64,000 nt of DNA from assembly GCA_964356815.1 (NCBI GenBank), contig CAYHIR010000001.1:32297-96296 (forward strand). Direction: 5' to 3'. Positions within the stretch are counted from its first letter, which is position 1. The number at the start of each line of letters is the position of its first letter. Shown in pieces: positions 5,292 through 62,578 of the stretch. The DNA comes from an uncultured Candidatus Saccharibacteria bacterium. GTDB taxonomy: Bacteria > Patescibacteriota > Minisyncoccia > Phycocordibacterales > DATGWK01. The notes beneath the pieces are model-generated. The model was not told where the DNA came from. It searched no databases and worked only from the letters and a program-made list of their open reading frames with translations. The position numbers were made by a program, and so were the translations under genes.

Positions 5292-6565
5292 CGTTCGATT
5301 TTTGTCTTTCCGCCCATGAATGGCTGGAGTGCCGCAGGAATATTTATCGAGCCATCTTCGTTTTGATTGTTTTCGAGCAACGGAACAAGAATTCGCGGAA
5401 TAGCGAGCGCGGTGTTGTTAAGCGAATGAACAAATTTGAGTTTGCCGTCGTCATCGCGATAACGAATGCCGAGGCGTCGTGCTTGGAAATCGTGGAAGTA
5501 TGACGCTGAATGAGTTTCGCGATAAGTATTTTCCGAAGGCACCCACGCTTCGATGTCGTATTTTTTTACTTGGCCCAAGCCGAGGTCGCCACCACAATTG
5601 AGCACAACGCGATACGGCAAACCAAGCGCCTGCATAATTTCTTCGGCATTGGCTGTGAGTTCTTCATGATGCTTCACCGACTCTTCATGGCTAGCTTCGC
5701 AAAGCACCACCTGCTCGTATTTATAAAATTCATGAACACGAATAAGACCTTTGGTGTCTTTGCCATGACTCCCTGCTTCGCGACGAAAACACGGAGAATA
5801 AGAAAGAATTTTTCGCGGCAAAGATTTTTTGTCGAGCACTTCGTCCATAAAATAACCCATGGTCGCCACTTCGGCCGAACCAGAAAGATGGTCGTCGTCT
5901 TGAGTTTTATACAAATCTTCTTCGCCTTGTGGCAAATAACCGGTGCCGATGAATGGCGCTTTTTTCACGAGTGAGGGAACGATCATTGGCGTGAAATTTT
6001 TGCCACCAAAATGAGCTAGGACAAAACTGCCAAGAGCTTGAGTGAGTAAAACAGCATCGTTCATTAATGTATAGCCGCGGAAACCAGCGACTTTTGCACC
6101 GCGTTCAAAGTCGGCCATGTTTAAATCGGCCATGAGCTCTAAATGATTTTTCGGCGTGAAAGAAAAATTTGGCTTCTCACCCCAAGTGCGGACCTCTACA
6201 TTTTCTTTATCACTTTTGCCTTCTGGCACAGACATGTCGGGAATATTTGGCACAGCAACCATGAGCGCCTGCCAAGCTTTTGTGGCTTCTTTAAGCTTAT
6301 CTTCTTCATCAGCCGCACTTTGCTTTATGGCGCGCATTTCTTCTATGAGTTTTGTGCGCTCTTCATCATTTGCGGCGGTGCCTGCGGCGGCGATTTTTTC
6401 ATTAGCAATTCCCTGTTCGGCCCGACGGACTTCCACAGTCGCCAAAAGCTTCCGACGGGCGTCGTCTACAGTAATGAGTCTTTGAAGATCGAAGCTTATA
6501 TGCTTCTTTTCGACCGCGGCCTTTATCAAATCTTGATTTTCTCTTATGAACTTTATGTCTAACAT
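5282..6565 (-). CDS. serS: Seryl-tRNA synthetase
   Basis: 427 aa; N-terminal coiled-coil arm plus class II core motifs. Confidence 0.9.
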   Translation of the reverse strand: MLDIKFIRENQDLIKAAVEKKHISFDLQRLITVDDARRKLLATVEVRRAEQGIANEKIAAAGTAANDEERTKLIEEMRAIKQSAADEEDKLKEATKAWQALMVAVPNIPDMSVPEGKSDKENVEVRTWGEKPNFSFTPKNHLELMADLNMADFERGAKVAGFRGYTLMNDAVLLTQALGSFVLAHFGGKNFTPMIVPSLVKKAPFIGTGYLPQGEEDLYKTQDDDHLSGSAEVATMGYFMDEVLDKKSLPRKILSYSPCFRREAGSHGKDTKGLIRVHEFYKYEQVVLCEASHEESVKHHEELTANAEEIMQALGLPYRVVLNCGGDLGLGQVKKYDIEAWVPSENTYRETHSASYFHDFQARRLGIRYRDDDGKLKFVHSLNNTALAIPRILVPLLENNQNEDGSINIPAALQPFMGGKTKIERAV

Positions 6566-11014: not shown

Positions 11015-11093
11015 AAAGATATTTTACCACACGATTTTATTTTCAGGCGTTTTATAGTAGAGTGGACTGGTTCTAGAAAGGTGTGTAAAAAAT

Positions 11094-24387: not shown

Positions 24388-24663
24388 ATGACTACGCAAG
24401 TAATATTCAACATCGATAAAAAGCTCAAGGACAAAGCGATGAAAAAAGCTCAGAGTGAAGGCATGCCATTTGGAGTTGTTCTTAAGCTTGCCACCAAAGC
24501 TTTCGTTGATGGCACCCTTGGAATCAGACTCGTCTCTAGCGAATCCTTCAATCCAGCGACCAGAAAAGCCGTTGACGAAATGATCAAGGATGTTAAAACG
24601 GGCAAAAACCTATCTCCTCGCCTTCGTACGGCAAAAGAAGCAGTGGCTTATCTAAGGGGCTAA
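24388..24663 (+). CDS. Type II antitoxin, RelB/DinJ-like ribbon-helix-helix family
   Basis: 91 aa; N-terminal RHH pattern (VIFNIDKKLKDKAMKKAQSEGM...VVLKLATKAFVD); AT-rich near-palindromic sequence upstream; 50 nt before the toxin gene. Confidence 0.6.
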   Translation: MTTQVIFNIDKKLKDKAMKKAQSEGMPFGVVLKLATKAFVDGTLGIRLVSSESFNPATRKAVDEMIKDVKTGKNLSPRLRTAKEAVAYLRG

Positions 24664-24713
24664 GTTGAAGATAACTTAAATATTTCTTGATCTAAGAATG
24701 GCAATGTTTTGCC

Positions 24714-25142
24714 ATGGATAACACAGAAAAAGACTTTGACAGATGGGGTTTAGAGAAAAAATATACTCATACTTATTACAGGAAAATAATTTTTTACGAA
24801 CGAGAAATTTGGTGGGCAAAAATCGGTGTGAACGTAGGAGTAGAAATTGACGGAAAACATGAGCTTTTTCTTCGGCCTGTAGTTTTATTAAAAAAATTTA
24901 ATAAACATATGGTTTTGATCGTGCCAACCACAGGCAAAGAAATACAGGATGAATATCACATTCCTGTTTCAGGAGAAGACGGTAAAATCTACCATGTTTG
25001 TATTTCCCAAATTCGAACCATTAGTACGAAGAGGTTATTTAGAAGAGTGGGTAAAACAGATAAAGAAAGTTTTACATTGCTTATTAGCGCAACCTTAGAG
25101 ATGATTAGAAAAAATACCGTGAACAACGAAACCCCGCATTAA
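24714..25142 (+). CDS. MazF/PemK-family endoribonuclease toxin
   Basis: 142 aa; REIWWAKIGVNVGVEIDGKHELFLRPVVLLKK...LIVPTTGK...ISQIRTISTKRL matches the PemK/MazF SH3-like barrel signature. Hairpin terminator at about 25127..25160. Confidence 0.7.
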   Translation: MDNTEKDFDRWGLEKKYTHTYYRKIIFYEREIWWAKIGVNVGVEIDGKHELFLRPVVLLKKFNKHMVLIVPTTGKEIQDEYHIPVSGEDGKIYHVCISQIRTISTKRLFRRVGKTDKESFTLLISATLEMIRKNTVNNETPH

Positions 25143-25283
25143 GCGGGGTTTCTCGGATGGTCATCGAACCTAGAATATTATTAGGCCGAAACCGATAATG
25201 TACTAAATACTAGCAAACCCTCGGCAAAAAACAAGTTCAAAAAGCTCGAATTTTATGCTCTGATGTGATAATCTGAAATTTCT

Positions 25284-28857: not shown

Positions 28858-29211
28858 TCATCGAGGCGCCTGCGGCAAATTTGGTGTGCGAGTATCTAGA
28901 TCGAAAGCATCACCGAAGAAATTGACGATACCCCAAACAGAAACCATCACGAAGAAAGCGATGATGCCCCAAAGCATGATGTTTTTACCTTTTGTCTGAG
29001 CATCTTCATCACCAGAGTTTAGAATGAACTTTGCAAGACCCCAGAAGAAGTAAAGAAGTGCGAGGGCAATAACGATCGGTAGAAGGGTGTTGTTTATTAA
29101 ATTGAGAAAATTTCTTAAAGTGCCTTCGATGTTGTTGAGGCTTGAGGTTTGCGCAAAAGCCATAGCTGGCGAGAGAAACATAAAAGAACCGAGAATGAGT
29201 GCCTTTTTCAT
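28858..29211 (-). CDS. TrbC/VirB2-like small two-TM protein (T4SS_pilin-type) with signal peptide, paralog 5
   Basis: 117 aa; signal peptide AMAFA; LPIVIALALLYFFWGLAKFILNSGDEDAQTKGKNIMLWGIIAFFVMVSVWGIVNFF. Confidence 0.65.
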   Translation of the reverse strand: MKKALILGSFMFLSPAMAFAQTSSLNNIEGTLRNFLNLINNTLLPIVIALALLYFFWGLAKFILNSGDEDAQTKGKNIMLWGIIAFFVMVSVWGIVNFFGDAFDLDTRTPNLPQAPR

Positions 29212-29318
29212 TTATTTTGTTAAAACTTGAATAATAAAATTAATCTAGTACCCAGAAATTTTACCACACCCACCGAGCAATACAATGTCGGGTGTTAATA
29301 ATTAAGACCACTCAAAAC

Positions 29319-29702
29319 TTAATTTTGAAAAGGGCCACCACCATAGTCGTTTCTCCGATTTTGTCGCGGAACGGATTCTGGAAAAGCGGTGCCGCTATAA
29401 TCGGCATTTGGATCAAGATCGCCAGAATAAGCTGGTGGTCCACCGCGTTCTCCAAAACCAAAAGAATCAGCCAAAAAATTCACAATGCCCCACACAGACA
29501 CCATTACAAAAAGAGAAATGATGCCCCAGAGCATTATTCGCTTGCCCTCTTCAATCGCCTTCTCATCGCCCGCCACTCGAAAAATCATCCGCGCCAAACC
29601 CCACATAAAATAAAGTAGTGCCAAAGCCACCAAAATCGCAAGTAGAGTATTTATAACATCGTGACTGGCCAATATTAAGCCTTTTAAATTTGTAAACCGC
29701 AT
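29319..29702 (-). CDS. TrbC/VirB2-like small two-TM protein (T4SS_pilin-type), paralog 4
   Basis: 127 aa; LAILVALALLYFMWGLARMIFRVAGDEKAIEEGKRIMLWGIISLFVMVSVWGIVNFL; Gly/Asp-rich C-terminal tail. Confidence 0.65.
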   Translation of the reverse strand: MRFTNLKGLILASHDVINTLLAILVALALLYFMWGLARMIFRVAGDEKAIEEGKRIMLWGIISLFVMVSVWGIVNFLADSFGFGERGGPPAYSGDLDPNADYSGTAFPESVPRQNRRNDYGGGPFQN

Positions 29703-29728
29703 GTATTTTGTGTGTGTTTAAGAAAACT

Positions 29729-30151
29729 TTAAGACTGAGGAAAAATCGGCAATTGAGGCGGAATATTTAAGCGTCCACCAACAAGGTCTGAATAGAAAAA
29801 TTGCAATATGCCATATATCGAAACAGCCACAAAAAGGCCAATGATGCCCCAGAGCATAATTTGCTTCCCTTCCTCTATTGCCCCCTCATCGCCACCCACT
29901 CTAAACACAAATTTTGCCAAACCATAGAAAAATACGAGGAGCATCAATGCAATGACGACAGGTATAACGGTATTTATGAGGTCTAAGAAAAGACACACCA
30001 GATCTTGAAATTCTCTTATGCTACCAGGAGGATTTTCCGGACATAGTGGAGCATAAGCCTGAGCCGAAGAAATAAGGGGGGCTAGAGACAACAACAAAAA
30101 GAAAGTTGTAAGAACGAATATTTTTGATATTTTTTTTAGTTTTTCCTGCAT
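29729..30151 (-). CDS. TrbC/VirB2-like small two-TM protein (T4SS_pilin-type) with signal peptide, paralog 3
   Basis: The ORF-track start at 30199 overlaps the upstream gene; the internal ATG at 30151 (MQEKLKK...signal peptide SSAQA) is preferred. VIPVVIALMLLVFFYGLAKFVFRVGGDEGAIEEGKQIMLWGIIGLFVAVSIYGI. Confidence 0.6.
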   Translation of the reverse strand: MQEKLKKISKIFVLTTFFLLLSLAPLISSAQAYAPLCPENPPGSIREFQDLVCLFLDLINTVIPVVIALMLLVFFYGLAKFVFRVGGDEGAIEEGKQIMLWGIIGLFVAVSIYGILQFFYSDLVGGRLNIPPQLPIFPQS

Positions 30152-30162
30152 ATCTATAAAAA

Positions 30163-30606
30163 CTACAACCTCGGACCAACAAAATCTTCTGAGTAACACG
30201 AGTTTGGCACAATTTTACAAATGGTTGTCTGAATTGCTTTGGCGATCACCACCGAGCCAAGCAAAATCGCCGCGCCAACCACCACCCATAGAAAAGTTTG
30301 TCGCGCATCCTGAAGCTTATCAGCGTTGCCCTGTGCCGTCACAAAAAGAAAGCCTGAGTAGATGACGAAAAACACCACAATCACCACACCGAGTGGTAAG
30401 ACAATATTTTCCAAGACATAAGTGACAAACGAGAATATGCTGTTTACATTGCCTGCCAAAGGATTTCCTATTCCACTTGGTATCTGACCGGTAGAGCCAG
30501 CAGAAGGCGGTATTGTTCCCGTCGACTGAGCTAAAATTTCTACCGTAGGAATGAAAGCGGCGCTCAAAATTACTACCAAAATAATAAGCGAGACTAAATA
30601 TTTCAT
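30163..30606 (-). CDS. TrbC/VirB2-like small two-TM protein, divergent paralog 2
   Basis: 147 aa; signal peptide; TM1-AQGNADKLQDARQ-TM2 architecture; C-terminal Cys pair. Confidence 0.55.
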   Translation of the reverse strand: MKYLVSLIILVVILSAAFIPTVEILAQSTGTIPPSAGSTGQIPSGIGNPLAGNVNSIFSFVTYVLENIVLPLGVVIVVFFVIYSGFLFVTAQGNADKLQDARQTFLWVVVGAAILLGSVVIAKAIQTTICKIVPNSCYSEDFVGPRL

Positions 30607-31019
30607 AAAATAATCTTATCAGCCTTAGCCGTTTTATCAAACTGGCCCGAAGATTCGAAAACGAAAGGATTCCAATAGCTTCCGTCTTCAAGGAGCACAG
30701 AAGTGATGGTGCGAACGATGAGCCAGCCTGAGAGCACAAAAAGAAAACCGATTAAAACTTTCCAGAAAATTCCTTTAGCTTCGGAAATTTTTGATGAACT
30801 GCCCTGCGCGGTGAGCATTATGAAGCCGGCCCAGGCAAAAGCCACGGCCGCCGCAGGAATAGACACAATTATAATGAAGTCGATGATGTTGCGCGCGAGA
30901 TTTAGCAGGTCGTTGAAATCGCAATTGGGTGCACCGGCAACGCAATCCACACCGAGCGTTTGGGCTGAAACAAAAATGGGCACGATGAGCACGAAAGCGA
31001 ATATTTTAATTGTTTTCAT
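30603..31019 (-). CDS. TrbC/VirB2-like small two-TM protein, divergent paralog 1
   Basis: 138 aa; signal peptide (VSAQT); Cys pair; TM1-AQGSSSKISEAKG-TM2; 4-nt overlap with the next gene. Confidence 0.55.
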   Translation of the reverse strand: MKTIKIFAFVLIVPIFVSAQTLGVDCVAGAPNCDFNDLLNLARNIIDFIIIVSIPAAAVAFAWAGFIMLTAQGSSSKISEAKGIFWKVLIGFLFVLSGWLIVRTITSVLLEDGSYWNPFVFESSGQFDKTAKADKIIL

Positions 31020-32882: not shown

Positions 32883-32907
32883 TTTTGCTTAATTATTCAT
32901 TTAATTG

Positions 32908-33029
32908 TAGCACAACAGTTTTATGTGTTGACTGAGTGACTCTCGGAAGCCGACGGGCTGAGAGTGAGGCGCGATTCGAGCACCGAATCGACGCCGGTCA
33001 CGAGGGCGACACATAAAACTGTTGTGCTA
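32908..33029. repeat. Hairpin element with perfect 20-bp terminal inverted repeats (TAGCACAACAGTTTTATGTG / CACATAAAACTGTTGTGCTA) and 82-nt core; the gyrA stop codon lies in the right arm
   Basis: Direct reading. Core contains GGAAGCCGACGGGCTGAGAGTGAGG, which resembles the core of the element at 53831..53941. Confidence 0.6.
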
Positions 33030-35528
33030 GAAGCAGATCAACGAAGCAATCTTGTCTTTTTCTCTAAGTTTCATGATTCTTACTCCTTGAGTTTGTCGTC
33101 CCAAAGAAGGTATCTCTTTCACATCAAGCCTAATCACCTGACTTTTCTGCGACATAGCAACAACTTCCTCAACTTCGTCGGTAATTAGAGAAGCAGACAT
33201 TATATCGCCTGTCTTTGGAGTAACTTTTGAGGTTTTTATACCAGAGCCACCGCGCTTTTGGATTTTGTATTCGTCGAGCTCGGTCTTTTTGCCGTAACCG
33301 TTTTCGCTGATGATGAGAAGGGATGGGTTAGTGGCAGACTTAGAAGCGGCAAGAGCAGCGATGACCGTATCGCCACGACCAAGCTTCATCGCACGCACAC
33401 CGCCAGCACCACGACCCATTTCGCGAATGTCGGATTCTTTAAAGCGGATAGACTGACCCTTGGCTGTCACGATCGCCGCGCTGTCGCCTTTGTCGACAAA
33501 AGATGCAGAGACTAAGCTGTCGCCCGCCGCGAGCTTGATAGCGATGAGACCACTGCGACGCACATCGTGGAAACTCGAAGCCTTCACCTTTTTGCCCACG
33601 CCCTGCTTAGTGATCATGAGAAGTGCGAGCTCATTTGCGCGCTTGATTTCTTTTGGCATTGTCAAAACAGATGTAACTTTTTCATCGTCGGCAAGAGCGA
33701 TGTAATTTAAAATTGATTTGCCTTTTGTGGCGCGTTTACCTTCTGGCAATTCGTACATTTTTATTTGAAACACGCGGCCTTTGTTTGTGAAAAATAGAAC
33801 ATCGCTGTGAGTGTTGGCCATGAGGAGAGTCGTCACAAAATCTTCGTCTTTTGTATCGAGATCGACGACACCCACACCGCCACGGCGTTGTTTTCTAAAT
33901 TCTTCTGGATTTGTGCGCTTAATGTAGCCGCCAGCAGTGAGCACGAGGGCATTTTCTTCTTCCGGCACCAAATCTTCCACAGAAAGTACCTTAGCGCCAC
34001 CGGCTAAAACATTTGTTTTGCGAGCATCGCCGTGTTTTTCGGCAACTTCTTTAAGCTCGGTTTTGACGATGTCGGAAATTATTTTTACGCTGGCAAGAAT
34101 TTTTTTGCAGGCTTTAATAAATTCTTGAACGGCTGCGAGTTCGTCTTCGATCTTTTTGCGCTCCAAGCCAGCGAGTTTTTGCAAACGCATTTCCAAAATA
34201 GCGGTGGCTTGAATGGCAGAAAAACCAAACTCTTTCATCAAATTGCGATGGGCATCTGGTGTATCTTTCGAAGCTTTGATGAGCTTGATTATTTTATCGA
34301 TATGATCGAGGGCTTTTGAAAGACCGAGCAAAATATGCTCGCGATCTTCAGCTTTTTTTAGATCAAACTCCGTGCGACGGCGCACCACGACCTTGCGATG
34401 AGCGATAAACTCGGTGAGCATGCTCTTCAGAGAGAGTGTTTGTGGCACACCATCTACGAGGGCGACGAAATTGCAATGGAAAGTGTCTTCGAGCTGGGTG
34501 TGTTTATATAATGTATTTAAAATTTGTTGCGGATGAGTATTGTTTTTGAGATCGATGACAATGCGAATGTCTCTTGTGGACTCATCACGAAGCGCTTTAA
34601 TGCCCTCAATCTTTTTTTCGCGCACCAGATCGGCAATTTTTATAATGAGATCAGACTTATTGACACGATATGGAATAGCAGAAATAACGATTTGAAAAGT
34701 GCCCGACTTCGTCTCCACTATTTCAGCAATGCCACGCGTGACGATACCGCCACGGCCTGTTGAATAAGCGTGGGTAATATCTTTTCTATTAAAAATGACA
34801 CCGCCAGTAGGAAAATCTGGACCTTTGATGTATTCCATGAGCTCTTCCACAGCGGCTTCTGGCTTATCTATCAAAAGGTTTACCGCACCAGCCACCTCGC
34901 CCAAATTGTGCGGCGGAATATTTGAGGCCATACCAACGGCGATACCGAGCGTGCCGTTCAAGACTAAATTTGGCGCGGCAGATGGCATCACCACAGGCTC
35001 TTTGCGAGTGGAGTCATAATTTGGTCGCCAATCGACCGTTCCTTTATCAATATCACGAAGCATGTCGCCAGCAATGCGCGACATTTTTGTTTCGGTATAA
35101 CGCATTGCGGCGGCTGGATCGCCGTCTATATTGCCGAAGTTTCCTTGGCCAAGAGCGAGCGGATAGCGCGTAGAAAAATCTTGCGCCATTTTTACGAGCG
35201 AGTCGTACACGGCCACATCGCCGTGCGGATGATAGCTTCCGAGCACATCGCCCACCACCACCGCCGACTTTCGAAACTTAGCCGAAGCCGTGAGGCCGCG
35301 TTCGTGCATCGCAAAGAGAATGCGGCGATGGACAGGTTTCAAGCCGTCGCGCACATCGGGCAACGCACGCGCAGTAATAACCGACATCGCGTAGTCGAGA
35401 TACGACTCTTTCATTTCTGTCGTGATATTGCGCTCAACGACAGACTGATGAACAGGCTTTATTTCGCCGCCGCCGCTGTCGCCAGCTGAGCCTTTTGCCT
35501 CTGAGTTTTCGCCTTTTTTGCTAGCCAT
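33027..35528 (-). CDS. gyrA: DNA gyrase subunit A
   Basis: 833 aa; catalytic region (AAMRYTE), beta-pinwheel C-terminal repeats. Confidence 0.9.
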
Positions 35529-43769: not shown

Positions 43770-43785
43770 TAGGAACGCAGAAAAA

Positions 43786-43933
43786 TTTGCTCGGTCCAGC
43801 AGGAAATTTTTCGAGGATTATGGCTAAAGCCATGACAGCTCCTCGGCTCAGAAACACAAAGGTAAACCTTTGTGTTTCTCTCGCCCTACGTCGCTGATAA
43901 GTGAGCGCGCCCAAAGGCAGGCACGCGAACGGT
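43786..43933. repeat. Partial, TIR-less copy of the 52215..52352 element (inverted orientation) with a 76-bp insertion bearing a perfect 12-bp-stem hairpin (43851..43880)
   Basis: 43786..43826 matches the reverse complement of 52272..52312 (1 mismatch in 41 nt). 43903..43933 matches the reverse complement of about 52229..52265. Confidence 0.55.
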
Positions 43934-43978
43934 TTGAGCAAATAGCTATACGATTTTTCGTGCTATAATGTTTTTTCT

Positions 43979-44914
43979 ATGATTTACGATTTAGCAATCA
44001 TTGGTGGTGGTCCGGCTGGTGTAGCTGCCGGAGTTTATGCCGCGCGAAAAAAGCTTCGCACGATTTTCATTACATCCGATTTTAATAGTCAAAGTGTGGT
44101 TTCTGACGACATTCAAAATTGGATTGGCACAGTTTCCATCCGCGGCGAAGATTTGGCAAAAAGTTTGCAGGCTCATCTCGAGGCGTATGCGAGTGATGTG
44201 TTAGATATAAAAATTGGAGAAAAAGCTGTTGATATCCAGAAAGAAGAATGGGGTTTTAAAATAAAAACTGACGCAAGCGAAAATTCTCCCGAATATCGAG
44301 CAAAAACCGTTCTCATCGCCACTGGCGGACAAAGACGGAAGCTTGGTGTACCTGGTGCAGCCGAATTTGAGCATAGGGGTGTCACATATTGCGCTTCGTG
44401 CGATGGGCCACTTTTTGCGGGACAAGATGTCGTTGTTATCGGCGGTGGTAATGCCGGCTTTGAAACTGCCGCCCAACTACTCGCATATGCCAAAAGCGTT
44501 ACTCTGCTTCATAAAAATAAAGAATTTAAAGCTGACGCTATAACTGTCGAAAAAGTTCTCTCTCATCCAAATATGAGGGCGATCATCTCAGCCGAGCCGA
44601 CAAAAATAATTGGCGAAAAATTCGCAAGTGGTATCGTTTATAAAAATTTAGAAACTGGAGAAGAGACTACCCTTTCGGCGACCGGAATTTTTGTGGAAAT
44701 CGGCCTCATTCCAGCAACCAGCTTTGCAAAAGATGTCGCGAAGTTAAATGAGTACGGGCAAATTGTCGTTGACCCTAGAACCCAAGCCTCTTCTACATCT
44801 GGTATTTGGGCGGCTGGCGATTGTACCGACGGCCTCTATCACCAAAACAATATTGCTGCTGGTGATGCGGTCAAAGCCCTCGAAGATATTTATCTCCATT
44901 TAAACGCTGAATAG
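43979..44914 (+). CDS. trxB: Thioredoxin-disulfide reductase
   Basis: 311 aa; FAD GGGPAG, redox CASCDG, NADPH GGGNAG. TGcTATAAT extended -10 upstream. Confidence 0.9.
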   Translation: MIYDLAIIGGGPAGVAAGVYAARKKLRTIFITSDFNSQSVVSDDIQNWIGTVSIRGEDLAKSLQAHLEAYASDVLDIKIGEKAVDIQKEEWGFKIKTDASENSPEYRAKTVLIATGGQRRKLGVPGAAEFEHRGVTYCASCDGPLFAGQDVVVIGGGNAGFETAAQLLAYAKSVTLLHKNKEFKADAITVEKVLSHPNMRAIISAEPTKIIGEKFASGIVYKNLETGEETTLSATGIFVEIGLIPATSFAKDVAKLNEYGQIVVDPRTQASSTSGIWAAGDCTDGLYHQNNIAAGDAVKALEDIYLHLNAE

Positions 44915-49436: not shown

Positions 49437-49466
49437 GAAACCCCGCGCCTTCGCGGGGTTTTTTCT
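49437..49466 (+). terminator. Rho-independent terminator
   Basis: AAACCCCGCGCCTTCGCGGGGTTTTTTCTT. Confidence 0.7.
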
Positions 49467-51704: not shown

Positions 51705-52211
51705 ATGGGGGGTGATATAACAAAGTTAATTTTAAAAAACATAGACATGGCAAAAGACCGCAGATCATTTTTTGAGAGATTAACTGGCGCAGTCCGTTTG
51801 CCAGACGACGATGATTCGCGCGATTTAAAAATTCAAGCCGAGGGTGACGACGATTCTGCCGAATTAGAACCTGCCGAAGGCCAACTTATTGTCGATGTCT
51901 ACCAAACTCACAACGACATTATCATCAAAACCATGGTGCCAGGTGTCCGCCCTGAAGATTTGGATATAAATATCACCCGTGAAATGGTGACAGTGAAATG
52001 CAGGCGCGAAACCGAGCGCACCGTAGCCGACGGCGACTACTTTCACCGCGAGCTTTACTGGGGTAGTTTCTCTCGCACCGTTATGCTTCCTCAAGAAATA
52101 GATATCGACGGCGCCGACGCAACAGAAAAACACGGTCTTTTAATAATTAAATTACCGAAACTAGATAAAAATAGGCAGACGAAGGTGAGGGTGAAGAATA
52201 GTGGGAATTAG
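51705..52211 (+). CDS. Hsp20/alpha-crystallin small heat-shock protein (alternative start at 51747)
   Basis: Alpha-crystallin domain (QLIVDVYQTHNDIIIKTMVPGVRPEDLDINITREMVTVKC...GLLIIKLPK). Confidence 0.8.
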   Translation: MGGDITKLILKNIDMAKDRRSFFERLTGAVRLPDDDDSRDLKIQAEGDDDSAELEPAEGQLIVDVYQTHNDIIIKTMVPGVRPEDLDINITREMVTVKCRRETERTVADGDYFHRELYWGSFSRTVMLPQEIDIDGADATEKHGLLIIKLPKLDKNRQTKVRVKNSGN

Positions 52212-52214
52212 GTA

Positions 52215-52352
52215 GACAAAATCTCCGTAGTGAGTTTCTCAAACCGTTCGTGCGCCTCCTGCGGGCGCACTCACTTAATCCTCGAAAAATTTCCTGCTGG
52301 ACCAAGCAAATTTTTCTGCGGCAGTTTTCGAAACTCACTACGGAGATTTTGT
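52215..52352. mobile_element. MITE-like element: perfect 24-bp terminal inverted repeats (GACAAAATCTCCGTAGTGAGTTTC / GAAACTCACTACGGAGATTTTGTC) around a 90-bp core; directly after the hsp20 stop
   Basis: Direct reading. Core has an internal 7-bp hairpin (GTGCGCC/GGCGCAC). A partial inverted copy of the core is at 43786..43933. Confidence 0.6.
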
Positions 52353-52356
52353 CTTG

Positions 52357-52809
52357 TTAATTTACGAAATAATTCTTTTTTCTTAGAAGATAGGTGGCGA
52401 TAAAAATACTCGGAATAATCCAAGATAGGAGTGTAAAAATTGTCACGAAATAAATAATATTTTCACCTAAAGCTATATCTTGCGGGGAAAGCGGCGTATC
52501 ACTCAAAACTTCGAAAGTACCTCCGTTCCACAAAATAGCAAGAATGTCCATAAAATTAAGGACGGCAAAATATATCGAGAATATTATCGCTGTCTTTCTG
52601 CCATCTTTATTTTTTTTAGATATTCCCCAGAAACAAAAAATTAAGATAAATAGAATTCCAAAATTCTCTACAAGTGCAAAATTGTCTTCTAATAATATCG
52701 GCCCCTTACCAAAAAAATTTAACGTCGTTGAAACAATCGCCAAGCCGATGAAAAACAAAACTAACGCTATCCCTATTGGCATTTGCCCTGGCGTGTTTAT
52801 ATTTTTCAT
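52357..52809 (-). CDS. Hypothetical 4-TM membrane protein, AT-rich
   Basis: 150 aa; four hydrophobic helices; no recognised motif. Confidence 0.45.
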   Translation of the reverse strand: MKNINTPGQMPIGIALVLFFIGLAIVSTTLNFFGKGPILLEDNFALVENFGILFILIFCFWGISKKNKDGRKTAIIFSIYFAVLNFMDILAILWNGGTFEVLSDTPLSPQDIALGENIIYFVTIFTLLSWIIPSIFIATYLLRKKNYFVN

Positions 52810-52920: not shown

Positions 52921-53047
52921 GTTGCGTAAACTTCTGATTCTGCGGTGACCGGAAATTTCTGCTGAAATTTCCTAACCCTCGGCCTCTTCGGCCTGCGTAG
53001 TCAATTCAAAACTTTAATTTACTCTCGCGGACGAACTAACCATACCA

Positions 53048-53400: not shown

Positions 53401-53658
53401 TCAATCGCGATGTTTGTTGTTACAATTAGAGCAGTTGGTTGTCGGTTTGCGATTTGTGTAGTAACAACGAGTTTTCTCATCTTCGATTTTGTAAAACAAG
53501 TTGACGAGAATTCCAAAGTGCAAGAAAGTAACGGCCACCCAGCCGAAAAAGGCAGCCAACGCAAGTGAGACGCTCCTAGTTTGATAGTAAATGAACACAG
53601 TGGACGCGATCATTGAACCAATCGCGACAATCAAGAAGCCTGGAATAGGCGGCAACAT
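53401..53658 (-). CDS. Small 2-TM membrane protein with Cys-rich C-terminus
   Basis: Start set at the ATG at 53658, preceded by AAAGGAGG 9 nt upstream (MLPPIPGFLIVAIGS...). The ORF-track N-terminal extension has no RBS support. Confidence 0.5.
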   Translation of the reverse strand: MLPPIPGFLIVAIGSMIASTVFIYYQTRSVSLALAAFFGWVAVTFLHFGILVNLFYKIEDEKTRCYYTNRKPTTNCSNCNNKHRD

Positions 53659-53830
53659 GCGACAACCTCCTTTTGAATGAACGGGGTGCCTTGGAACAAT
53701 GACAAAATCGAACATCGATTTTGTCCAAACCAACGAGTAAGATAACACATGAAAAGATACATAGCCATAGCGGCTAAAATTACATTTTGAAATGACTACG
53801 CCGGCCGAAGAGGCTGATTTTAAATACGAA

Positions 53831-53941
53831 GTAAGCACACAAGTGTTCTGAAAAGACTCCGCGGAAGCGCTTGGCGCTGAGCGGGAGGAAAATTTTCAGA
53901 AGAAAATTATTCCGTGCTTTTCAGAACACTTGTGTGCTTAC
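53831..53941. repeat. Hairpin element with perfect 25-bp terminal inverted repeats (GTAAGCACACAAGTGTTCTGAAAAG / CTTTTCAGAACACTTGTGTGCTTAC) and 61-nt core, 7 nt from the tRNA-Arg 3' end
   Basis: Direct reading. Core contains GGAAGCGCTTGGCGCTGAGCGGGAGG, which resembles the core of the element at 32908..33029. Confidence 0.6.
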
Positions 53942-62077: not shown

Positions 62078-62151
62078 ATTATTTTATTGTGTCTAATTAT
62101 AACCCGCGACTGACAAAACAAAAACCCGCTTTAGACGGGTCTTTGTTATTT

Positions 62152-62578
62152 GTTTGCTTGTGTCTATAAGCCGAATTCTGTACTCCACGATCACCGCCGA
62201 AGCGGTGCCGCTAAGCGATAAACATTTATCTGCCCTGTGAGTTACCCCACGGGTCAAGCGACTCTTTTTTCCAAAACAGCAGTTTTTATTCTGAAGTTTC
62301 AAAAAAACTCGGTCTTGCACTTAGGTAAGGATTTGGCCGTTTCACCTCGAAAATTACTTTTCGAGCTCATCCTCGAATCGAGGATGCCTCCCCCATTTCG
62401 GGTTCGGCGTCTCTGTTCGCACCTCGCAGATTGCTCTGGACGGGCGTTACCCGCTACCCTCCTGCCGTGACACCTGCGGAAATATTTCTATTTCCACCAC
62501 GCCACGACAAGTGTTCGGACTTTCCTCCCACATCGCTTGTTGCCAAGCTTTGTAAGCGTTTACCCGACACAAGCTAGA
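62152..62578 (-). ncRNA. rnpB: RNase P RNA (bacterial type)
   Basis: Minus-strand reading gives CR-I GGGAGGAAAGUCCGAACAC (reverse complement of 62510..62527), a CR-IV-like ACAGAAUUCGGCUUAUAGAC near the 3' end, P1 complementarity (GCUUGUGUC at the 5' end / GACACAAGC at the 3' end), and an intrinsic terminator ACCCGUCUAAAGCGGGUUUUUG downstream. ORFs 62093..62320 and 62237..62470 overlap it and are rejected. Confidence 0.75.

Follow-up and report, generated by a model that had tools for sequence, protein, structure and literature searches.

The intergenic element at the 3′ end of hsp20 in a 64-kb stretch of a groundwater Patescibacteria genome (the whole stretch is called the window, and feature coordinates are window positions) has a conserved two-hairpin core that recurs at other loci and in related genomes, enclosed by long complementary arms that differ at every locus. 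The core is a real dispersed repeat and is not a classical miniature inverted-repeat transposable element (MITE) with terminal inverted repeats (TIRs) of its own. The host, from the Hainich H41 well, was read in our analysis as a Paceibacteria-like member of the Patescibacteria. Patescibacteria (Candidate Phyla Radiation) genomes are tiny and tightly packed, and are generally thought to be poor in mobile elements and non-coding DNA. The genes of the window are tightly packed as well, and one kind of structure fills most of its long non-promoter spacers. Whether in the window or in any fetched locus of a relative, every perfect inverted repeat that reaches 13 bp falls in an element of this type. 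Their density is low, with five elements in 64 kb when the two core families that we distinguish, F1 and F2, are combined.

The element at the 3′ end of hsp20

The element consists of two long arms around the short form of the F1 core:

52206-52244, unstranded: left arm, perfectly paired over 52214-52238, overlapping the hsp20 stop codon TAG (52209-52211)
52245-52323, plus strand: F1 core, short form, C-rich strand, comprising CGTTCG, hairpin 1, the linker CTCACTTAATCCTCG, hairpin 2 and TGCGGCA
52324-52362, unstranded: right arm, perfectly paired over 52330-52354, overlapping the stop codon of a convergent open reading frame (ORF) at 52357-52359

By direct reading of the sequence, the left arm GACAAAATCTCCGTAGTGAGTTTC (52215-52238) is the exact reverse complement of the right arm GAAACTCACTACGGAGATTTTGTC (52330-52353). 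A repeat finder gives 25 bp of perfect pairing (52214-52238 with 52330-52354), and complementarity reaches 39 nt at 87% (52206-52244 with 52324-52362). Shuffling the window 30 times with its composition preserved gave perfect inverted repeats (spacers of 20-260 nt) of at most 14 nt. A first-pass annotation had placed an element with perfect 24-bp ends at 52215-52352; the element is real and its ends are perfect, but the right end was set one base short (the arm ends at 52353) and the perfect pairing is in fact 25 bp.

Between the arms lies a 91-nt core with a 7-bp hairpin (52250-56/52264-70; hairpin 1, spanning 52250-52270, with loop TCCTGCG) and a second hairpin (52284-95/52305-16; hairpin 2, spanning 52284-52316, with loop CCTGCTGGACCAAGC). 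The innermost 7 nt of the left arm, CTCAAAC, are part of the conserved core. Folded as RNA, the element has a predicted free energy of -69.6 kcal/mol (z = -9.8 against 200 shuffles). Its sequence is the same in three independent ENA assemblies (L001, L002 and L009), so it is no assembly artefact. The element spans the entire gap between two convergent genes, from the hsp20 stop codon (52209-11) to that of a 150-residue membrane ORF (52357-52809, minus strand; stop at 52357-59).

Two side observations concern this locus. The listed hsp20 ORF (51705-52211, 168 residues) has an N-terminus about 13-14 residues longer than that of all close homologues (155 residues, 92% query coverage), and the true start is probably the ATG at 51747 (MAKDRRSFF). 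Logan contigs from several runs or samples (L003-L008, L010 and L032) end within the core from both sides, at about 52271, 52276, 52278 and 52322. These ends fit near-identical cores at other loci or in other organisms branching the assembly graph, and do not by themselves prove more copies in this genome.

A second copy between ftsZ and trxB

The window holds a second F1 copy, in the long form:

43776-43939, minus strand: long-form second copy of F1, oriented opposite to its orthologues in the relatives L014 and L021; hairpin 2 at 43780-43812, hairpin 1 at 43906-43927 with an altered loop
43821-43897, minus strand: long-form domain of about 77 nt, with a perfect 14-bp hairpin (43850-63/43866-79) and the small hairpin ATGGCT-AAA-GCCAT (43820-43833)
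43940-43969, unstranded: trxB-side arm remnant, diverged (CAAATAGCTATACGATTTTTCG), identical to the L014 arm at 12 of 24 positions

This copy matches the hsp20 core over 45 nt with one mismatch (43776-43820 versus 52276-52320) and over a further 51 nt at 80%. Its 3′ end is cut off at the ftsZ stop codon, leaving it without a ftsZ-side arm, and it has unique changes in the loops of both hairpin 1 and hairpin 2, which suggest decay. The trxB-side remnant is followed by an extended -10-like box, GTGCTATAAT (43960-43969), 9 nt ahead of the trxB ATG at 43979. The first-pass annotation had seen an inverted copy here without terminal repeats; we confirmed the inverted copy and the missing second arm, with corrections to its extent (43776-43939) and to its hairpin (14 bp, not 12). 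The 76 bp that it had taken for an insertion are the conserved long-form domain, which is also present in L014 with compensatory changes (5 of 13 stem pairs of the main hairpin altered on both sides).

Neither a short-word blastn search nor a covariance model run with filters off found a third F1 copy in the window. We also examined extensions of about 8 kb and 7.5 kb past the window (about 17 kb in all), bringing the genome sequence examined to about 82 kb, and these contain no additional element.

Dispersal and conservation of the F1 core

The F1 core (about 85-93 nt: AAACCGTTCG, hairpin 1, the linker UCCUCG, hairpin 2 and CUGCGGCWGTTT) is found at four kinds of locus across five or more related genomes: the 3′ end of hsp20 and the ftsZ-trxB spacer (both in the window), upstream of tpiA (L017) and the ftsA-ftsZ spacer (L025). 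L014 and L017, from the same aquifer as the window, came from an exact-pattern scan of metagenome contigs with the hairpin-2 loop, which gave two real and six chance matches. TrxB homologue look-ups gave four further loci (L021, L022, L023 and L024), and L025 was found by a covariance model built on the F1 core. The exact hairpin-2 loop pattern had a single chance cyanobacterial match among 185,579 species-representative genomes, a set to which the source genome apparently does not belong.

Occupancy of these loci differs between relatives. L017 has a short-form core upstream of tpiA, with 29 of 30 positions of its outer stem paired. At the ftsZ-trxB locus, L014 carries the long form in forward orientation within a 20-bp perfect stem, L021 also has a forward copy (its contig begins within the core), L023 has hairpin 1 alone followed by a T-rich tail, and L022 and L024 have other, non-F1 cores. 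The distant member in L025 (41.6 bits) lies antisense to its neighbours in the ftsA-ftsZ spacer, one spacer upstream of ftsZ-trxB; the ftsZ-trxB spacer of the same genome (L025 positions 5925-6030; TrxB 71% identical) has three small unrelated hairpins and no F1 or F2 element. The proposal of a dispersed structured repeat family in the first-pass annotation is therefore upheld at the hsp20, ftsZ-trxB, tpiA and ftsA-ftsZ loci. The alternative it had named, just two copies that are syntenic in all relatives, fails because the family shows these occupancy differences, and the core is absent from the hsp20 site of a sister species (L026, described below).

The cores are 90-95% identical between loci (73/79 to 76/80), and the trxB coding DNA of the window and of the L014 organism is just 77% identical. 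In L025, both hairpin stems are replaced (e.g. GAAAAAUUU/AAAUUUUUC by GGCGGUUUUGC/GCAAAACCGCC), with the loops UCCGGCG and ACCAAGC and the linkers UCCUCG and CUGCGGCA retained. In the model-fitted alignment, which leans towards the model, 16 of 23 pairs are changed on both sides, and the paired share of cells is 91%, compared with 72% in shuffles (none of 500 attains the observed value) and 36-59% when the partners are slid. In an unfitted alignment of four sequences, 4 of 500 shuffles reach the observed pairing.

The copy at the ftsZ site of the window is inverted relative to those of L014 and L021, and copies lie on both strands within a single GC-skew domain, a distribution on which we rejected replication-strand bias as an explanation. 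Without a fixed polarity relative to transcription or replication, the core is less likely to have a strictly cis-acting role as RNA. The F1 core has no match in phage and plasmid collections. Viral contigs scanned with the exact hsp20 arm, the loop pattern and the arms of elements B, C (both described below) and L022 gave nothing, and so lend no support to arms that are phage-derived and spacer-like. A chimeric six-frame core peptide, used to look for spurious ORF calls, had no match among 5.8 billion predicted proteins.

A second family of cores

Scanning the window for long perfect inverted repeats gave the armed elements B and C, and an F2 covariance model gave a third element, D:

53831-53941, unstranded: element B, 25-bp perfect locus-specific arms (53831-55/53917-41) around a 61-nt two-hairpin F2 core
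32896-33041, unstranded: element C, 21-bp perfect arms (32908-28/33009-29) around an F2 core
52947-53001, minus strand: element D, F2 core without arms (24.9 bits, E about 2e-4 by cmsearch with the F2 covariance model)

The F2 family consists of the cores of B, C, L024 and L022, plus D. Its G-rich strand reads stem, GGA, hairpin, GA, stem, a GAGG-like linker and a hairpin with an AGCA(C) loop, which in D is GGAAATTTC-AGCA-GAAATTTCC. C and L024 align with a score of 42 (shuffle maximum 30), and B and L022 with a score of 35 (25). The hsp20 core aligns with B at a score of 31 against a shuffle maximum of 29, which points to a possible distant relationship between F1 and F2. The cores of L022 and D run opposite to those of B, C and L024. 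The core family in the ftsZ-trxB spacer varies by relative, being F1 in the window, L014 and L021 and F2 in L024.

These elements also sit at gene boundaries. B starts 7 nt past the 3′ end of a minus-strand tRNA-Arg. The gyrA-side arm of C begins within the gyrA stop codon TAG (33027-29), and its other arm ends in TGTGCTA, part of a promoter-like extended -10 box, TGTGCTACAAT (32914-32904, minus strand), 22 nt ahead of a methyltransferase gene. D lies between the stop codon of an ORF of 85-88 residues and tRNA-Phe. As a side observation, the far arm of B overlaps the called GTG start of the ORF at 53401-53838 (minus strand), so that start is probably mis-called.

The arms are specific to each locus

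Arms of different copies match at random identity (4-9 of 24 positions), and those of hsp20, L017, L014, B, C, L022 and L024 all differ. Because the arms are unrelated while the cores are 90-95% identical, and each intact copy has its own stem, the sequences first annotated as the terminal inverted repeats of a mobile element lie outside the repeated unit and are not borne by it. We counted arm pairing by script because a whole-element MAFFT alignment put the unrelated arms out of register. The three F1 outer stems contain 82 Watson-Crick pairs, no G·U pair and 8 mismatches, with 19 of 30 columns differing on both sides. Five further perfect arms (21-33 bp) have no G·U pair either, for a total of none among about 210 pairs.

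The arms extend into the neighbouring genes and promoters. Armed copies begin no more than a few bases from the upstream stop codon (or tRNA 3′ end) and run to the following stop codon or to an extended -10-like promoter. The hsp20 element, C, L014, L017, L024 and the L026 palindrome follow a stop codon or transcription-unit end, and B follows a tRNA. Extended -10-like boxes come after most elements with a co-directional downstream gene (the fts copy, C, L014, L017 and L021-L024; B is unclear). In L024, the 33-bp perfect arm contains AAATTAAAATAA, the last three codons and stop codon of ftsZ (K-L-K-stop). Since the C-terminus of FtsZ (…SKLK) is conserved in five orthologues, the distal arm of L024 was copied from the coding flank. 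The bases just outside the perfect arms of the hsp20 element, B and C contain no direct repeats, and the inverted repeat fades into imperfect complementarity; none of the three has a target-site duplication (TSD).

Template switching homogenizes the arms of inverted repeats and inverts the spacers between them (PMC5941160, PMC8604942). The marks of such a process are present here, namely perfect arms free of wobble pairs, inverted spacers (the ftsZ-site copy versus L014, and L022 versus B) and the L024 arm identical to ftsZ codons, and suggest template switching as an origin of the arms.

The orthologous hsp20 site in a sister species

L026 and L027, which represent a sister species, are syntenic with the window around hsp20 (identities of 81% for PrsW, 88% for Hsp20 and 36% for the membrane ORF). 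In this species the hsp20 spacer has a plain 26-bp perfect palindrome, flanked by A6 and T6, that spans both stop codons and encloses an 18-nt loop in place of an F1 core. Its arms are unrelated to the hsp20 arms of the window. The loop starts with AAACCG and ends with TGTGGC, where the core has AAACCG…TGCGGC at its ends, and this agreement of 11 of 12 bases at fixed positions leads us to infer that the L026 palindrome may be a relic of the element or a proto-site. Short terminators of the ordinary kind stand near hsp20 in more distant relatives, and several, with stems of 9-10 bp, are present in the window.

Explanations for the elements

Our best explanation, which we hold tentatively, is a composite one: a non-autonomous double-hairpin module at the apex of locally templated palindromes, which would be probable terminators or insulators and targets of ribonuclease III (RNase III). 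The F1 module (about 85-93 nt, joined in the long form by the two-hairpin domain of about 77 nt) is dispersed among the intergenic sites of a narrow, Paceibacteria-like Patescibacteria clade. It turns over like a small selfish element, occupying differing loci in either orientation and decaying there, and would spread by a route unlike that of a transposase. The palindrome around it occupies all of the space between transcription units, reaching from one stop codon to another or to the next promoter, with arms derived from local sequence and not carried in by the element. Intrastrand template switching (quasipalindrome correction) would create the arms, keep them perfect and extend them outward, copying the constrained gene-proximal flank to the other side and occasionally inverting the spacer. 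When transcribed, the resulting stem of 25-39 bp would be a probable terminator or insulator (bidirectional at the hsp20 site), would protect 3′ ends, and would be long enough for RNase III. The first-pass annotation had predicted a bidirectional terminator or RNase III substrate for the long stem, and that role is plausible; U-rich tails follow the stems of hsp20, L014 and L024.

Several points weigh against this explanation. There are only two F1 copies in the approximately 82 kb of this genome, no mobilizing enzyme (transposase, reverse transcriptase, integrase or HUH) is encoded in the window or its extensions, and no near-identical strains were seen to differ by an insertion. A functional RNA would classically show the same combination of covarying stems and conserved loops. 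A simple consensus scan found no canonical terminator at the elements, and the U-tracts after the stems of C and L017 are weak or absent. Selection, instead of a mutational mechanism, could keep the arms perfect. The arms are not obligatory, as D and the ftsZ-site copy are cores without arms. Most of the relatives are short metagenome contigs of low coverage.

If the composite explanation is true, Patescibacteria genomes carry a small selfish or co-opted repeat family that standard finders of MITEs, TIRs and TSDs would miss. Long perfect palindromes could then be built from local sequence, including coding ends, as a footprint of template-switch mutagenesis at gene termini and promoters. The conserved loops would define a candidate new structured RNA or single-stranded DNA motif with two related families, open to modelling and to searches. 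The element would also account for short-read assembly breaks of these organisms at such sites.

A stronger version, possible in our view though on balance doubtful, is that these elements form an undescribed class, a 'capped palindrome', in which a module spreads among gene ends without terminal repeats or target duplications and the host machinery templates the enclosing palindrome from the local flank, up to or into stop codons and promoters. If so, the streamlined intergenic architecture of these genomes would be shaped by unusually active palindrome homogenization, possibly tied to reduced repair gene sets.

The main rival, which we consider unlikely, is that the core is a functional structured small RNA (sRNA), derived from a 3′ untranslated region or standing alone and released by RNase III, whose conserved loops and linkers, among them the invariant anti-Shine-Dalgarno-like UCCUC / CUCC on the C-rich strand or GGA / GAGG on the G-rich strand, would bind a protein or pair with targets. 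The stems covary, the loops and linkers are kept even in the distant L025, and the cores are better conserved than coding DNA, as an sRNA would predict. The G-rich strand folds more stably in all seven tested elements with a structured core (the coreless L026 palindrome is opposite by 0.7 kcal/mol), and the few G·U pairs and mismatches of the inner stems lean to the same strand, although they are too few to decide which strand folds. Against an sRNA, each family splits about 3:2 in its orientation to the neighbouring genes, the core comes with neither a conserved promoter nor a conserved terminator, and there is no Rfam match. The locus also varies between close relatives, and the decaying copies (at the ftsZ site, in L023 and the L026 relic) would be atypical of a housekeeping sRNA.

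It is decidedly unlikely that the elements are simply host terminators or insulators, inherited vertically, whose cores resemble each other through gene conversion or common descent, with neither mobility nor a separate function of the module. The placement of armed copies between an upstream stop codon or tRNA 3′ end and the next stop codon or -10-like promoter fits this alternative, as do the hairpin and T-rich tail of L023, which resemble a simple terminator, and the textbook bidirectional terminator shape of L026. However, the genome uses ordinary short terminators elsewhere, and a pure terminator would not keep its loop sequences. Nor does vertical inheritance sit well with differing core families in one ftsZ-trxB spacer across relatives, or with an hsp20 site that is wholly different between species whose Hsp20 proteins are 88% identical.

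More doubtful still is a role at the level of DNA, in which the branched palindrome, extruded as a cruciform or as a hairpin of single-stranded DNA, would be bound or cut by an HUH/Y1-type enzyme, a recombinase, or a replication or segregation factor. This alternative would account for arms that are strictly Watson-Crick and for placement independent of orientation, and the conserved-loop hairpin near each end of the core is loosely reminiscent of the subterminal hairpins of IS200/IS605. But the neighbourhood has no candidate enzyme gene, the two hairpins do not resemble one another, and the GC skew, which suggests a single replichore, reveals no polarity, with F1 on both strands.

A classical MITE, its 24-25-bp ends serving as its own terminal inverted repeats for a transposase encoded elsewhere, was the first-pass reading of the hsp20 element and would suit a small intergenic sequence with perfect inverted ends and more than one copy, but is highly improbable given ends that are unrelated among copies sharing a 90-95% identical core, arms that in other copies include host coding sequence and promoter, the lack of target-site duplications, the absence of a transposase among the ORFs of the window and its extensions, and the lack of an exact match to the hsp20 arm in viral contigs.

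We rejected several other identities for the elements. A small protein gene was set aside, as hairpin 2 is open in every one of the six reading frames and neither a start codon nor a frame is conserved. Signal recognition particle RNA, 6S RNA, 5S rRNA, self-cleaving ribozymes and riboswitches have no Rfam match and no matching conserved core sequence at the elements. In the window, only tRNAs and RNase P reach the Rfam gathering score, and permissive scans of the four element regions returned only weak matches to generic hairpins (miRNA-type). CIRCE/HAIR operators were also considered and rejected.

Other features of the window

Extended -10-like boxes of the form TGTGnTAnAAT occur at 11021-11031, 29258-29268 and 32904-32914 on the minus strand and at 43960-43969 on the plus strand (three exact matches against 0.4 expected), only 6-47 nt ahead of start codons. 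This spacing points to leaders that are very short or missing, and to promoters that lack a clear -35 element. Ordinary terminators at 25128-25152 and 49438-49461, beside unrelated genes, have near-identical stems (GAAACCCCGC…GCGGGGTTTC and AAACCCCGCG…CGCGGGGTTT), which may represent a further small terminator motif that is repeated.

A run of five small paralogous ORFs lies at 28858-31019 (minus strand), four of which match the T4SS_pilin Pfam family. At 24388-25142 (plus strand), in a tRNA-rich stretch, a MazF/PemK-like toxin gene (24714-25142) follows a 91-residue ORF without a Pfam match, which is probably the antitoxin. The bacterial class A RNase P RNA (62151-62575, minus strand) is a divergent version, scoring 102.5 bits against an Rfam gathering score of 100.

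Comparison with known systems

Integron attC sites are likewise hairpins at gene 3′ ends whose structure is kept while the arm sequence varies. Their boxes (RYYYAAC and GTTRRRY) stand at the outer ends around a variable apex, which is the reverse of the arrangement here. We rejected attC because the motifs CTCAAAC and GTTTTCG lie at the arm-core junctions, the outer ends are locus-specific, and there is no integrase or cassette array. REP/REPIN sequences were rejected because the palindromic arms are not conserved, no Y1/HUH (RAYT) gene was seen, and the density is low. A retron msr-msd is superficially alike, but the neighbours are hsp20 and the membrane ORF, ftsZ and trxB, and gyrA and the methyltransferase gene, with no reverse transcriptase.

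The Correia elements of Neisseria, ERIC and RUP are bacterial MITEs, intergenic and non-autonomous repeats of about 100-160 bp near gene ends, and their long-stem transcripts can terminate transcription and be cut by RNase III. All these repeats have conserved terminal inverted repeats of their own and make target-site duplications (TA for Correia). In the elements described here, by contrast, the inverted ends differ at each locus and contain host stop codon, coding or promoter sequence, and there is no duplication.

Bidirectional intrinsic terminators share the position directly after convergent stop codons, the A-tract, stem and T-tract of L026, and the U-rich tail of the hsp20 stem. Unlike ordinary terminators, the elements have stems two to three times longer than those of the window's own (9-10 bp) and an apex of 60-170 nt in place of a 3-8-nt loop.

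A parallel in behaviour comes from mitochondrial hairpin elements (the double-hairpin elements of Allomyces and the repetitive hairpin-forming elements of sponges), which are short modules of one or two hairpins, intergenic, in compact genomes, and confined to related species (PMC2800124 and its reference 12). As in those elements, occupancy differs, target duplications are absent and no enzyme is associated (PMC2800124). The differences are the Patescibacteria host, the lack of sequence kinship, and the enclosure in long locus-specific perfect palindromes, in which the mitochondrial elements have not been described.

Inverted repeats homogenized by template switching have the same perfect arms, mirrored multi-nucleotide changes and inverted spacers (PMC5941160, PMC8604942, PMC7202029). 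Their documented arms are mostly shorter than about 15 bp, whereas those of the elements are 20-33 bp, reach into stop codons and the ends of coding sequences, and enclose a dispersed module that is conserved. Among small structured intergenic repeats, this pairing of a conserved apex with arms apparently templated from the local sequence is the unusual property of the elements.

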